From contig JANQES010000045.1 of NCBI GenBank assembly GCA_028278205.1, positions 16,319 through 80,318 on the forward strand: DNA of 64,000 nt. The letters are read 5' to 3'. This DNA is from Rhodothermales bacterium (GTDB lineage Bacteria; Bacteroidota; Rhodothermia; Rhodothermales; Bin80). Below the pieces are notes generated by a model. It searched no databases and was not told the DNA's origin. It was given only the letters and a program-made list of their open reading frames with translations. Position 1 is the stretch's first letter. Each line of letters begins with the position of its first letter. A program made the translations under genes and the position numbers. Positions 19,934 through 40,123 of the stretch are shown here, piece after piece.

Positions 19934-20671
19934 CTAGTCCAGCGCCATGGGGAACGACGGCGAGGGGTGCGCCGCCACTGTCTGCACGAAGCCCCCCTCC
20001 ACCCGATACCACCCCTGAAACGTCTGGCCTCGCTCGTTAAAAAAAACAACCAGCGGACGCCACGTCGTGGTTTTTTGGGGCGCGGCAAGATTCACCACGA
20101 CGCTTCGGGTATCCAGGCGCAGCCCTTCGCGGAGGGCTTTCAGAGCGCTCTCTTTGGCACTCCAGATAAGATTAGCCAGCCACGCCCGATCCGCCGCCGC
20201 CGCACCTTCGACGAGGGCCTGTTCTTCCGGCGTGAAATAATCGCTCACGAACGCCGGGCTGCGCGGCTCGATTTTTTCCAGATCACATCCTAACGCCACG
20301 CTGCCGGGCGCGACGACGCAGAACGCCTGCCCCCCGCTGTGGCTGATCGACAGGGTGAACGGGGCTGGCTCGTCATCCACAAAAACCTCCGGCGCCCCGT
20401 CTTCGGCAGCGCGGATGGCTATCGATGACAGAGCCGGCTGAGCAGCGGCCTCGGCGAGGCAGGCGACCAGGGCTTGCTTGGCGGCATAGCGGCCCAGCCG
20501 CCACTCGGCGCGGCGCTTCGGAAAACGCAAGCCGGCCAACACCGCCGCCTCATCCGGCGCCATCCACGCGTTGTCTTCGGGAAGGTCTGCCGCATTCCAG
20601 GTCAGCGTGTAGACGGGTGTTTGCTTGCCGGGGATAGCCCGTTGTGCCATCATCTCTGGCGTGTGTGCCAC
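19934..20671 (-). CDS. 4'-phosphopantetheinyl transferase (Sfp type)
   Basis: Contains SISHSGG and the C-terminal signature WSAKESALKALREGL. Adjacent to a multi-ACP megasynthase. Confidence 0.82.
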   Translation of the reverse strand: MAHTPEMMAQRAIPGKQTPVYTLTWNAADLPEDNAWMAPDEAAVLAGLRFPKRRAEWRLGRYAAKQALVACLAEAAAQPALSSIAIRAAEDGAPEVFVDDEPAPFTLSISHSGGQAFCVVAPGSVALGCDLEKIEPRSPAFVSDYFTPEEQALVEGAAAADRAWLANLIWSAKESALKALREGLRLDTRSVVVNLAAPQKTTTWRPLVVFFNERGQTFQGWYRVEGGFVQTVAAHPSPSFPMALD

Positions 20672-20679
20672 GATTAACC

Positions 20680-20765
20680 AGGAAAGGAAGAGAGGGAGAA
20701 AGGGCGAGAGGGCGATTTGTTCTTTTCACCCTTTCCCCCTCTCTCCCACTCCCCCTCTCACTCAC
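20680..20765. repeat. purine-rich/pyrimidine-rich (GAGGG-type) palindromic element
   Basis: ggaaaggaagagagggagaaagggcgagagggcg pairs with caccctttccccctctctcccactccccctctcactc. A related copy lies at 50776-50860. Confidence 0.8.
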
Positions 20766-37936: not shown

Positions 37937-37996
37937 GGTCATGGGTCACGGGTCATGAGTAAGAATCCCATGACTCATGACCCGTGACTCATGACC
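37937..37996. repeat. CATGAC/GTGAC-type palindromic element
   Basis: ggtcatgggtcacgggtcatgagt pairs with catgactcatgacccgtgactcatgacc. Confidence 0.85.
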
Positions 37997-38074
37997 AACG
38001 CCGACGGGCGCGCAGCGTGCCTCCGTCAAAAAACCGCAAAACGTACTTCCTGCTTGCAAAAAAGACCGGGGAAA

Positions 38075-40123
38075 ATGCTGACACTCACGGAAAAAGTGCT
38101 CTTCGCCCTCGCCTTGCTCTTCTCCGCGTACGGGACCTACCTGGGGTTTTCCAAAGTCTTCAAAACGATCCGGCGCGGCCAGGGTGAGCCGCTCCACGTG
38201 AGCTTCTGGGGCGCCGTCAAGGCCCTCGGCAAGTGGATCATCATGAAGCCCATCTGGAAGACCCGCCCCGTCGCCAGCATCTTCCATGGCATGATCGCCT
38301 GGGGCTTCATCTTCTACTTCCTGGTCAATTTCGGCGACATCGTCCAGGGCTACGTGCCCGGCAAGTTTCTGGGCGAAGGCACCGTCGGCGATGTCTACCG
38401 CTTCCTGGGCGATATCTTCAGCATCTCGGTGCTGGTGGGGATGACGTGGTTCATCCTGCGGCGCTTCTTCCTGCCCAGCAAAAAAGACCTGACCTACCAC
38501 GACAACGTCAAGCTCATCAAAAACGTCAAGGTCAACTTTCTAAACCTGACGGTCCACCGCGACTCGTTGATCGTGGGCATTTTCATCCTGAGCCACGTCG
38601 GCTTTCGGTTTCTGGGCGAGACGTTCACCATCGGCCTGGAACAACTCCACGCCGGCCACGGCGACCCCGGCCAGCCGTTTGCCAACGCCCTCAGCCCGGT
38701 CTGGGCCGGCCTCAGCGAGAGCAGCCTCGTCTTCGGCCAGCACCTGTGCTGGTGGATTGCCCTGGGCCTGATCCTGGGTTTCCTGCCCTACTTCCCCTAC
38801 ACCAAGCACTTCCACCTGATCATGGCCGGCTTCAACTTCTGGACGAGGCCGGAACGAACCTCCCTCGGCGCGATGGATCCCATCGATTTCGAGGACGAAT
38901 CCATCGAAGAGTTCGGCGTGGCGAAGATTGAGGATCTGCCCAAGACGCACATCATGGACGCTTTCTCGTGCATCATGTGCAACCGCTGCCAGGACGTCTG
39001 CCCGGCTTACACCACGGGCAAAGAACTCTCGCCCTCGGCGCTGGAGATCAACAAGCGCTACTATCTCAACGAACACATGGGCATGCTGGCCGACGGCGGC
39101 GAATCGGAACAGACGATGCTCGATTTTGCCATCACCGAGTCGGCGGTGTGGGCGTGTACGGCGTGCGGGGCCTGCATAGACATCTGCCCGGTGGGCAACG
39201 AGCCCATGTTCGACATCCTCAACATGCGCCGCAATCTGGTGTTGATGGAAAGCAGCTTCCCGGGCGAGTTGCAAAACGCCTACCGCGGCATGGAGCGCAA
39301 CGGCAACCCCTGGAACATCAGCGCCGCCGACCGCATGAAGTGGGCCGACGGCCTCGACGTGCCGACCATCGACGAGAACCCGGAGCCGGACGTGCTCTGG
39401 TGGGTCGGCTGCGCGCCCGCCTACGACCCGCGCGCGCAGAAAACCGCCGTCGCGCTAGCGCAGGTGCTAGGCGCCGCCGGTGTCAATTTCGCCGTCCTTG
39501 GCGATGCCGAGACCTGCACCGGCGACTCGGCCCGTCGTTCGGGCAACGAGTATCTTTTCTTCGAATTAGCGAAGGCCAACATCGAGACACTCAACGAGGC
39601 TAAGGCAAAGCGCATCGTCACCACGTGCCCGCACTGCCTGCACACCATCGGCAAAGAATACGGCGCTCTCGGCGGTAACTACGACGTGATCCATCACACC
39701 GAACTGCTGGCCGAACTGGCCGCCGCCGGAAAAATCAGCATCAACACCGGCGCTACCACCGATCAGATTACCTTCCACGACCCCTGCTACCTGGGCCGCC
39801 ACAACGACATCGTGGACGCCCCGCGCGACGTGCTCAAGGCGCTCAACCTGCCGGCGGTAGAGATGCCGCGCCACGGCAAAAAATCGTTCTGCTGCGGCGC
39901 CGGCGGCGGGCAGATGTGGAAGGAAGAAGAAGCCGGCGACGCCACGGTCAACACCACACGCTACGAGGAGGCCGCCGGCACCGGCGCCAGGACCCTCGCC
40001 GTGGGCTGCCCGTTCTGCCTGACGATGATGGACGACGCCTCGAAGACCTCTGAACAGCCGATGGTCGTCAAGGACGTCGTCGAGATTGTGGCCGATGCAA
40101 TGGGGAGAAACGGGCAGGCGTAG
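38075..40123 (+). CDS. membrane-bound Fe-S / CCG-domain oxidoreductase (EtfD / HdrD-GlpC-like)
   Basis: Start MLTLTEKV at 38075. N-terminal multi-TM region, two ferredoxin motifs (CIMCNRCQDVCP and CTACGACIDICP) and two CCG-type Cys motifs (TTCPHC and FCCGAGGG). Confidence 0.8.
   Translation: MLTLTEKVLFALALLFSAYGTYLGFSKVFKTIRRGQGEPLHVSFWGAVKALGKWIIMKPIWKTRPVASIFHGMIAWGFIFYFLVNFGDIVQGYVPGKFLGEGTVGDVYRFLGDIFSISVLVGMTWFILRRFFLPSKKDLTYHDNVKLIKNVKVNFLNLTVHRDSLIVGIFILSHVGFRFLGETFTIGLEQLHAGHGDPGQPFANALSPVWAGLSESSLVFGQHLCWWIALGLILGFLPYFPYTKHFHLIMAGFNFWTRPERTSLGAMDPIDFEDESIEEFGVAKIEDLPKTHIMDAFSCIMCNRCQDVCPAYTTGKELSPSALEINKRYYLNEHMGMLADGGESEQTMLDFAITESAVWACTACGACIDICPVGNEPMFDILNMRRNLVLMESSFPGELQNAYRGMERNGNPWNISAADRMKWADGLDVPTIDENPEPDVLWWVGCAPAYDPRAQKTAVALAQVLGAAGVNFAVLGDAETCTGDSARRSGNEYLFFELAKANIETLNEAKAKRIVTTCPHCLHTIGKEYGALGGNYDVIHHTELLAELAAAGKISINTGATTDQITFHDPCYLGRHNDIVDAPRDVLKALNLPAVEMPRHGKKSFCCGAGGGQMWKEEEAGDATVNTTRYEEAAGTGARTLAVGCPFCLTMMDDASKTSEQPMVVKDVVEIVADAMGRNGQA

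Follow-up and report, generated by a model that had tools for sequence, protein, structure and literature searches.

A Type R secondary-lipid synthase operon of a Rhodothermales bacterium, its threonine-type carrier domains and its predicted acyl-CoA dehydrogenase partner

We analysed a stretch of 64,000 nucleotides from a Rhodothermales bacterium (GenBank assembly GCA_028278205.1, contig JANQES010000045.1, positions 16,319 to 80,318), here called the window, which carries a four-gene operon built around a PfaA-like megasynthase. The operon encodes, from its first gene to its last, an acyl-CoA dehydrogenase (ACAD), the megasynthase, a single-chain biotin carboxylase and an Sfp-type phosphopantetheinyl transferase (PPTase). 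The open reading frames (ORFs) of these genes and of a divergent gene for an EtfD-like membrane oxidoreductase were all found at the expected coordinates, and the four minus-strand genes are co-directional, with gaps of 86, 110 and 104 bp between them (Table 1). The ACAD ORF reaches 37516, and the start used by NCBI is the ATG at 37507, which gives a protein of 561 aa. A minus-strand terminator scan of the operon gaps gave nothing convincing, and a promoter scan gave a single weak sigma-70-like match, on the plus strand at 37817-37846 in the divergent region. The gene order and domain order proposed by an initial annotation of this DNA were borne out by the ORF check and by Pfam and NCBIfam domain calling, as was its divergent EtfD-like gene. 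Its extent for the locus, 19934-40123, proved too short: the genes named are there, but the cognate EtfA and EtfB genes lie outside it, and the functional unit reaches past these coordinates to EtfAB at 57.2-59.3 kb.

Table 1. Features of the synthase locus and of the electron-transfer genes in the window
Feature	Coordinates	Strand	Evidence
PPTase, Sfp-type, 245 aa, last operon gene	19934-20671	-	PF01648 ACPS 3.1e-17 and 4PPT_N
Single-chain biotin carboxylase, eukaryote-like, 1869 aa, presumed acetyl-CoA carboxylase	20758-26367	-	Pfam domains
PfaA-like megasynthase, presumed iterative, 3079 aa, KS1-AT-KS2-ACPx5-KR-DH	26478-35717	-	Pfam and NCBIfam
DH, PKS-type double-hotdog, aa 2801-3063	26529-27317	-	PF21089 and PF14765; HxxxGxxxxP, His2820
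KR with structural subdomain, aa ~2250-2760	27438-28970	-	PF08659 2.2e-22; TGAAGS 2493, Tyr2682
Five tandem ACPs, aa ~1680-2225	29043-30680	-	PP-binding profile
ACP threonine codon, T2178	29184-29186	-	
ACP threonine codon, T2064	29526-29528	-	
ACP threonine codon, T1943	29889-29891	-	
ACP threonine codon, T1825	30243-30245	-	
ACP threonine codon, T1714	30576-30578	-	
KS2, FabF-like condensing domain, aa ~1081-1640	30798-32477	-	Cys1305/His1453/Lys1488/His1493
KS2 two-helix insertion (hairpin), aa ~1211-1267	31917-32087	-	AlphaFold2 model
AT, aa 637-933	32919-33809	-	GHSLGE (Ser735), HAFH (837); FabD 1.7e-55
KS1, type I PKS/PfaA-type, aa 32-497	34227-35624	-	Cys242, His376, His416
ACAD, VLCAD architecture, 561 aa, first operon gene	35822-37507	-	ACAD domains, AlphaFold2 model, synteny
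Divergent intergenic region between ACAD operon and EtfD-like gene, 483 bp, presumed shared promoter region	37508-37990	.	Coordinates
EtfD-type membrane Fe-S oxidoreductase, 710 aa	37991-40123	+	Transmembrane segments, Fe-S motifs, CCG domains
EtfA, 327 aa	57208-58191	-	PF01012 and PF00766
EtfB, ORF 284 aa	58409-59263	-	PF01012

The megasynthase contains two ketosynthases (KS1 and KS2), an acyltransferase (AT), five acyl carrier protein (ACP) domains, one ketoreductase (KR) and one dehydratase (DH), and the active-site motifs of KS1, AT, KS2, KR and DH are intact. Its score against the PfaA model TIGR02813, 1019.7 bits, is barely over the cutoff of 1010.1. The best PDB matches of KS1 were KS-AT didomains of type I polyketide synthases (PKS), and the KS1-AT region also matched 6riw, which we take to be the didomain of KS and chain-length factor (CLF) from PfaC. 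The HAFH motif of the AT is presumably the malonyl-specific signature of established PKS knowledge, and the KR profile match spans aa 2556-2714. Through Pfam scans of the remaining predicted genes, we found no PfaB-, PfaC- or PfaD-like gene, no FabA-type DH, no enoyl reductase (ER) and no thioesterase anywhere in the 64 kb, which agrees with the earlier statement that ER, CLF, FabA-type DH and thioesterase are missing. A tblastn search of the window with FabK-like ER domains returned chance matches only (E >= 0.24). Because there is no FabA-type isomerase, the chemistry by which canonical polyunsaturated fatty acid (PUFA) synthases place methylene-interrupted cis double bonds would not be expected here.

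The domain between the AT and the ACP array had been noticed before as an extra KS, and the comparative data support this. The residues Cys1305, His1453, Lys1488 and His1493 of KS2 align with the catalytic residues of FabF and were invariant in all 113 homologues compared. The AlphaFold2 model (pLDDT 88.1) showed the thiolase fold in full, with a hairpin of two helices inserted into it, and the nearest structures found by Foldseek were free-standing FabF/KAS II enzymes (target TM 0.82-0.85). KS profiles fail to recognise the N-terminal ~200 aa of this domain. We considered a CLF as the identity of KS2 and rejected it, since a CLF is without the active-site Cys and usually without the His residues, whereas KS2 keeps the whole Cys/His/Lys/His set and folds most like FabF. 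These results indicate that KS2 is a FabF-like ketosynthase with predicted condensing activity, and that the megasynthase would hold two competent condensing enzymes in cis. An arrangement of this kind offers a compact model for the division of chain-length control between two KS domains.

All five ACPs passed the PP-binding profile (PF00550, four-helix fold; E 1e-35), and all five read DLGIDTVKQAE, so that a threonine, encoded by ACG, stands at the phosphopantetheine-attachment position instead of the conserved serine of the (D/E)xGxDS motif. The initial annotation had overlooked this feature. In the alignment the threonine falls on Ser36 of E. coli AcpP, and no serine at all occurs in the 80-aa core of ACP1. 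Pairwise identity among the five domains is 63-91% at the amino acid level and 70-89% at the nucleotide level; TRF gave no call for the array, in which the linker lengths vary.

To see how far the threonine extends, we compared the same position in related proteins. It was threonine in 51 of 51 ACP domains from the window and the related genome and long-contig loci L001-L017, in all 83 ACP motifs of KS2-homologue proteins, and in 177 of 185 ACP domains of family representatives chosen at 50% identity; pooled, this is 311 of 319 family ACP domains, the sets partly overlapping. The serine-type exceptions are P0363, with five DLGIDSVK ACPs, P0358 and one ACP of P0356, and they have the serine in the same motif, which confirms the ACP register. 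Since the representatives include members with a fused ER, to which we return below, the threonine trait is independent of the ACAD.

The PPTase keeps the Sfp-like motifs ISHS, GCDLE and WSAKESALK, of the Mg-binding GxDxE and WxxKE(A/S)xxK types, in a register set against an Sfp sequence. A PPTase homologue comes after the synthase or after the carboxylase in related loci, and in the family it is always encoded or fused. The simplest reading, we infer, is that these ACPs carry phosphopantetheine on threonine, installed by a co-evolved PPTase of the cluster. To our knowledge, E. coli ACP with the S36T substitution is not modified by AcpS. Our literature search found no report of threonine-type ACPs. 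Such carriers would challenge the serine-attachment rule and could give an orthogonal ACP/PPTase pair for engineering.

The carboxylase combines on one chain the domains Biotin_carb_N/CPSase_L_D2/Biotin_carb_C, Biotin_lipoyl, ACC_central and Carboxyl_trans, that is, biotin carboxylase (BC), biotin carboxyl carrier protein (BCCP), central region and carboxyltransferase (CT). This is the architecture of the eukaryote-type multidomain acetyl-CoA carboxylase (ACC), and its PDB matches include the yeast and human ACC. It is presumed to supply malonyl-CoA. We examined the neighbourhood in 80 metagenome loci anchored on KS2, for which every denominator given here is the number of loci where the position in question could be evaluated. 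An ACC orthologue directly follows the synthase in 45 of 52 of these, as well as in L006, L009, L012-L014, L016 and L017, and the PPTase directly follows it in 6 of the 52. Three Chloroflexota loci have split CT, BC and BCCP genes instead of the single-chain ACC.

This architecture has been described before. Shulse and Allen (2011, PLoS One 6:e20146, PMC3098273) used the name Type R for systems in which one pfaA homologue, ordered KS-MAT-CLF-ACP(3-6)-KR, precedes a PPTase gene, with an ACC gene between synthase and PPTase in Koribacter; their examples came from Acidobacteria, Elusimicrobia and Chloroflexi, and the product was left uncharacterised. The window shows the same domain order, the downstream PPTase with an intervening ACC, and no pfaB, pfaC or pfaD in 64 kb, and its relatives likewise occur among Acidobacteria and Chloroflexi. 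Because architecture and neighbourhood equal this description, we assign the locus by its sequence to the Type R secondary-lipid synthase operons. It is not an undiscovered branch. The initial annotation, which had suggested an uncharacterised branch of pfa-like synthases, was thus right as to function, since the product is uncharacterised, and not as to discovery. The cluster type that we matched is one without a known product, no pfaC or pfaD lies nearby, and KS2 is not a CLF. In our literature search there was no later functional work on the Type R product, and a 2025 preprint on PUFA-synthase-like systems does not treat Type R.

Several points go beyond that report (PMC3098273). It calls the internal domain a CLF, a label that is untenable given the complete catalytic set in 113/113 homologues and that should, on our sequence and model comparisons, be dropped for KS2. 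It makes no mention of the dehydrogenase, of a link to Etf/EtfD, of a C-terminal DH or of threonine-type ACPs, all of which the window has, and the distribution is now far wider, including Actinomycetota, Myxococcota and Calditrichota. What appears to be unreported is the obligatory ACAD with its ETF/EtfD, a sister branch with FabK-type ER, the true second KS and the threonine-type carriers. The locus itself is an ordinary-looking member, and its interest lies in these family-wide features.

Compared with the canonical PfaABCDE systems (Types A and B), the window has in common a PfaA-like chain of KS, AT, tandem ACPs, KR and DH, an Sfp-type PPTase of its own and iterative extension with malonyl units. 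It differs in having no PfaB, no PfaC (KS-CLF-2xFabA-DH) and no PfaD ER, in its second KS, which lies in cis and is FabF-like rather than PfaC-like, and in its ACPs, which carry threonine and not serine. A canonical PUFA synthase was rejected as an identity, since PfaB/C/D are absent from the window, as the initial annotation had said, and from ~100 related loci. That the locus is a fragment of such a synthase with PfaB/C/D outside the window is extremely improbable: the bare pass over the PfaA subfamily cutoff would fit it, but these genes are missing from 64 kb and from the related loci, the internal second KS defines the family, and Type R is listed as a single pfaA homologue plus PPTase (PMC3098273).

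We then surveyed the family with homology queries from the KS2 region, the family probe being the N-terminal KS2 segment that is invisible to generic KS profiles. Homologues of the KS2 region at ~55-66% identity were found in Acidobacteriota, Actinomycetota, Chloroflexota, Myxococcota, Calditrichota, Gammaproteobacteria and other metagenome-assembled genomes (MAGs). None of the GTDB representatives is nearer than 63-66% identity, and the closest relatives include MAGs of Terriglobia/Terriglobales, Bryobacteraceae and Chloroflexia/Chloroflexaceae. With the N-terminal probe we obtained 720 clusters at 50% identity, of which 206 matched at E <= 1e-30, and a metagenome scan gave at least 600 matched stretches. 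In ten of ten GTDB loci, from at least five phyla, we found a collinear cassette of ACAD, KS1-AT-KS2-ACPn-KR-DH, in some cases ACC, and PPTase.

The ACAD is the most constant neighbour of the synthase. It has three ACAD domains, an invariant IYEGTSEI motif with the catalytic Glu, and a C-terminal tail of ~170 aa without a Pfam match. The AlphaFold2 model (pLDDT 88.6) gave as best full-length Foldseek matches human and mouse very-long-chain acyl-CoA dehydrogenase (VLCAD), 3owa and 2z1q, with TM 0.75-0.80. Because the match to VLCAD-type structures (3b96, 3owa, 2z1q) runs from end to end and takes in their additional C-terminal helical domain, we take the tail to be the VLCAD-type extra domain, and the predicted fold would imply long-chain substrates. 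The window ACAD differs from these enzymes in being only 22-25% identical to them and in sitting in a biosynthetic operon. Close PDB matches also include the reductive CarC (caffeyl-CoA reductase) and Bcd of the Bcd/Etf complex.

An ACAD gene lies directly upstream of the synthase and co-directional with it in 16 of 16 evaluable genome and long-contig loci (L001-L010 and L012-L017), and upstream in all 59 evaluable metagenome loci; the gap between the two genes has a median of ~94 bp in related loci. The reverse search, with the ACAD only, led to three loci (Calditrichota L015, L016, L017), and in all three the megasynthase follows immediately downstream. No hydratase, hydroxyacyl-CoA dehydrogenase or thiolase genes co-occur at the window or at the related loci examined. 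A search for fusions of ACAD and megasynthase, which would have counted as Rosetta-stone evidence, was negative; the long extensions at the N-terminus are FabK-like ER domains. No report of an ACAD partner for Type R turned up in our literature search. On this point the initial description needs amending: these comparisons argue that neither the ACAD nor the EtfD-like gene is there incidentally, and that the ACAD is an integral partner of the synthase.

The electron-transfer genes point the same way. In the EtfD-like protein, four hydrophobic segments at the N-terminus are accompanied by two CxxCxxCxxxC motifs (2x[4Fe-4S]) and two CCG domains, and translation may actually begin at the Met at aa 29. 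It is 70% identical to the protein that precedes EtfB-EtfA in L017, the closest relative (ACAD 76% identical), where EtfD-EtfB-EtfA are likewise divergent from the ACAD. Against the cluster-linked pair of L017, identity is 67% for EtfA of the window and 73% for EtfB, on a level with EtfD; the homology of the window EtfB, and its PDB matches, start at about aa 36. These identities indicate that the window EtfAB is the cluster's own Etf, which now lies inverted ~17 kb away, beyond a Cox-type cluster. In PDB similarity searches, bifurcating and canonical Etf structures scored about equally against the window Etf.

Among the metagenome loci, EtfAB genes stand before the ACAD in 45 of 50 and EtfD in 37 of 42, and the module is also present in L001, L012 and L017. 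The order is WS/DGAT (wax ester synthase/diacylglycerol acyltransferase), EtfD-like, EtfB, EtfA, ACAD, synthase in L001 (Terriglobia), and EtfD, EtfB, EtfA, ACAD, synthase, ACC, PPTase in L012. Between the window plus L017 on one side and L001 plus L012 on the other, the Etf/EtfD modules are only 30-37% identical, whereas the ACADs are 67-71% identical, suggesting that two Etf/EtfD lineages were recruited independently.

Two characterised chains resemble this set. The M. tuberculosis EtfD serves EtfBA and ACADs in a chain that runs oxidatively (PMC8593149), and the window shares with it the three components ACAD, Etf and EtfD and, compared by architecture, the build of EtfD (Rv0338c type; membrane domain, 2x[4Fe-4S], 2xCCG). 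In Syntrophus aciditrophicus a membrane ETF:methylmenaquinone oxidoreductase, ETF and ACAD reduce enoyl-CoA, a process named "enoyl-CoA respiration" (PMC8805022), so the same three-component logic is there shown in the reverse direction, towards enoyl thioester reduction. Both chains work on free acyl-CoA, in a catabolic or respiratory setting, whereas the window ACAD is genetically tied to a biosynthetic megasynthase.

The more distant members of the family bear on the proposed role of the ACAD. The proteins P0334, P0341, P0352, P0354, P0369 and P0380 carry an N-terminal PF03060 domain, whose best NCBIfam match is TIGR03151 FabK (E 1.2e-38 and 4.6e-13, under the equivalog cutoff), in the architecture ER-KS1-AT-KS2-ACPn-KR-DH(-PPTase). 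These members (P0334, P0352, P0369 and P0380 were compared) share the KS1-AT-KS2-ACP-KR-DH core, 41-55% KS2 identity and the ACP motif DLG[IV]DTVKQ; they differ in owning one or two N-terminal FabK-type FMN-dependent ER domains and often a fused PPTase, with no ACAD, Etf or ACC seen nearby. No ACAD lies within 8 kb in the evaluable ER-fused loci L019 and L100, and tblastn found none in L018, L019, L100 and L101. Conversely, searches of the window, of L001-L017 and of the 80 metagenome loci turned up no FabK-like sequence. This reciprocal pattern of FabK-type ER and ACAD looks like non-orthologous displacement, and we see in the ACAD the leading candidate for the missing ER. It would have a substrate only in the reductive direction, because cycles of KS, KR and DH give only trans-2-enoyl intermediates.

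We propose that enoyl reduction in this Type R operon is carried out in trans by the VLCAD-type ACAD via EtfAB and EtfD, and from sequence and analogy we give the proposal a roughly even chance of being right. For the other steps the sequence support is strong: the single-chain ACC is positioned to provide malonyl-CoA, and the malonyl-type AT loads the five tandem carrier domains. KS1 and KS2 would condense, and the KR and the PKS-type DH would process the chain, making up a self-contained, iterative machine like a type I fatty-acid synthase (FAS). The ACAD would then run reductively on the enoyl intermediate, its FAD being reduced via EtfAB by the EtfD-type Fe-S protein with electrons from the (mena)quinol pool. 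Such a reduction would be feasible with menaquinol, because the menaquinone couple, with an E0' of about -74 mV, lies below that of enoyl/acyl thioesters, at about -10 mV. A long and for the most part saturated acyl chain would result, and the ER step would draw its electrons from the respiratory chain and not from NAD(P)H. Candidate routes of release are back-transfer to CoA by the AT, or direct use of the acyl-ACP by acyltransferases such as the WS/DGAT of relatives.

A WS/DGAT gene is found at the upstream edge, where the loci are truncated, in at least 14 of 39 metagenome loci (in the L024-L098 set) and downstream in L027 and L050; tblastn with the WS/DGAT of L001 gave no match in the window. 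These neighbours suggest a hand-off to neutral lipids of the wax-ester or triacylglycerol type, and point Acidobacteriota lipidomics in that direction. In many soil and peat loci a WS/DGAT gene (positions 3-1574 in L001) heads a co-directional string of WS/DGAT-EtfD-EtfB-EtfA-ACAD-synthase.

A number of observations weigh against this proposal. The evidence is comparative throughout, and the direction of an ACAD cannot be read from its sequence. The enzyme resembles CoA-dependent ACADs (E ~1e-57) far more than 4irn (1e-29), the one carrier-protein-dependent ACAD among the PDB matches, so that its action on ACP-tethered substrates is presumed, and the textbook direction of an ACAD/ETF/EtfD chain is oxidative (PMC8593149). 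Etf/EtfD genes do not adjoin the ACAD in L002-L010 and L013-L016 (Chloroflexota, Actinomycetota, Myxococcota and Calditrichota), and 5 of 50 metagenome loci have no adjacent Etf; such loci would need a housekeeping ETF. Being close relatives, the 80 metagenome loci do not count as independent. Just two ER-fused loci could be fully evaluated, and the visible part of the distant member L101 shows neither ER nor ACAD. For the carrier domains, the argument for phosphopantetheinylation of threonine is one from homology only.

The best-surviving alternative is an oxidative ACAD that acts in tailoring or priming. The enzyme would put an alpha,beta double bond into a saturated acyl-CoA or acyl-ACP, which could be a primer supplied by the housekeeping FAS or else the product after release, and the electrons would go through ETF/EtfD to quinone. 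The synthase, at no point reducing its enoyl intermediates, would make a polyene-like or hydroxylated chain. The M. tuberculosis chain is oxidative by experiment (PMC8593149). The catalytic Glu motif of the ACAD is also normal, and the enzyme is closest to ordinary CoA-dependent ACADs. The megasynthase is without an ER, and ER-less KS-AT-ACP-KR-DH enzymes such as the enediyne PKSE make polyenes. However, an ER-less synthase yields no saturated alpha-beta bond to oxidise, and the domain scans found no primer-loading domain (fatty acyl-AMP ligase, CoA ligase or loading AT). An oxidative role also leaves the FabK-type ER in place of the ACAD in the sister branch unexplained, and the adjacent ACC and frequent WS/DGAT suggest a bulk acyl lipid, not a reactive polyene. 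We consider this alternative unlikely.

It is improbable, too, that an unlinked host ER (FabI, FabK, FabV or PfaD-like) reduces the chain and that ACAD and ETF, though still tied to the synthase, serve a different purpose such as editing, product turnover or redox sensing. Our view of the source genome is limited to 64 kb, ERs that act in trans are usual for Pfa systems (PfaD; Type A, PMC3098273), and several phyla have the ACAD without an adjacent Etf. Yet the adjacency of ACAD and synthase in every evaluable locus across many phyla is much tighter than an accessory role would lead one to expect, the ER-fused branch lacks the ACAD, and the other beta-oxidation genes do not co-occur.

That ACAD, EtfD and Etf are chance neighbours from catabolism beside an ordinary ER-less PKS is strongly disfavoured and very improbable: all three are common beta-oxidation genes, but adjacency, strand and short spacing are kept in 16/16 and 59/59 loci across phyla, two unrelated Etf/EtfD lineages occupy the same position, and ACAD-first searches always reached synthase-adjacent ACADs. 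We rejected this candidate on the adjacency in all evaluable loci.

If the reductive proposal holds, the operon would make bulk long-chain acyl lipids, and in many soil Acidobacteriota the neighbouring WS/DGAT would probably turn these into wax esters or triacylglycerols. With ACAD/ETF/EtfD as the ER, the making of fatty acids would be coupled directly to the quinone pool, which would bring a new redox logic into FAS and PKS enzymology and a possible electron sink in soil bacteria. Only tentatively, and as a view that may well fail in part, we extend this to the family: Type R would be a widespread respiratory-chain-coupled FAS in which the ACAD replaces a FabK-type ER, with the first threonine-phosphopantetheinylated carriers, and it would make bulk lipids, possibly as an electron sink. 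Type R is common in dominant soil and peat phyla, and fifteen years after it was catalogued it has no product or mechanism.

Several variants were seen among the related loci. In the KS-AT-KS2 family, ACPs lie between KS1 and AT in P0275, an ACP lies between AT and KS2 in P0347 and N-terminal to KS1 in P0328 and P0333, P0334 has tandem FabK-like domains, and several members have a fused C-terminal PPTase. In L012-L014 the megasynthase and ACC are split into many short called genes, probably through frameshift errors in repetitive GC-rich sequence; such probable errors explain why most KS2 database matches are "partial" proteins of <1200 aa. Upstream neighbours are not conserved outside the Acidobacteriota-like clade. 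In L003 (Anaerolineae) a 1240-aa STAND NTPase-WD40 protein (1509-5231) stands directly upstream of the ACAD. L019 encodes a ferredoxin-fused EtfA (1-455; Fer4, ETF and ETF_alpha) ~7.5 kb upstream of its ER-fused synthase and a separate Fer4 protein directly upstream of it.

In the rest of the window, Pfam scans identified Rnf/Nqr-like, hydrogenase-like, GFO/IDH/MocA, ApbE, transposase, N-acetyltransferase, S41 peptidase and TonB receptor genes and a cluster of Cox/xanthine-dehydrogenase type, and Rfam found no RNA family. The TonB-dependent receptor is a hint of a diderm organism. Directly after the EtfD-like gene lie two minus-strand ORFs, 40255-40836 (193 aa) and 40760-42196 (478 aa), with high GC3 and an overlap of 77 nt; we excluded them from the system, as they have no Pfam or NCBIfam match and no counterpart in related loci. 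The molybdoenzyme cluster of Cox/xanthine-dehydrogenase type is complete (42536-51475, plus strand) and lies between the EtfD-like gene and EtfAB. It comprises FAD, 2Fe-2S and Mo subunits, CoxG, a MoxR-like AAA ATPase, a CoxE protein with VWA domain, XdhC with an HMA domain and a MobA-like NTP transferase. Because EtfB-EtfA directly follow EtfD in L017, this block may mark a rearrangement or an insertion.

At the window start there is an RnfD/NqrB-family gene with two downstream ORFs (366-2854, plus strand). The region 4001-6000 shows a dip in G+C content to 0.535, against ~0.62 elsewhere, together with an unannotated 436-aa ORF (3923-5233, plus strand), and may be foreign DNA. The minus-strand genes at 6100-11574 look like a redox-enzyme neighbourhood, with a NiFe-hydrogenase-like large subunit (6667-8160), a NAD-binding/Fe-S protein (8868-9716) and a Fer4_22 protein (10246-11574). 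A DDE_Tnp_4 transposase gene with HTH_Tnp_4 (11676-12737, plus strand) lies 7 kb downstream of the PPTase end of the operon.

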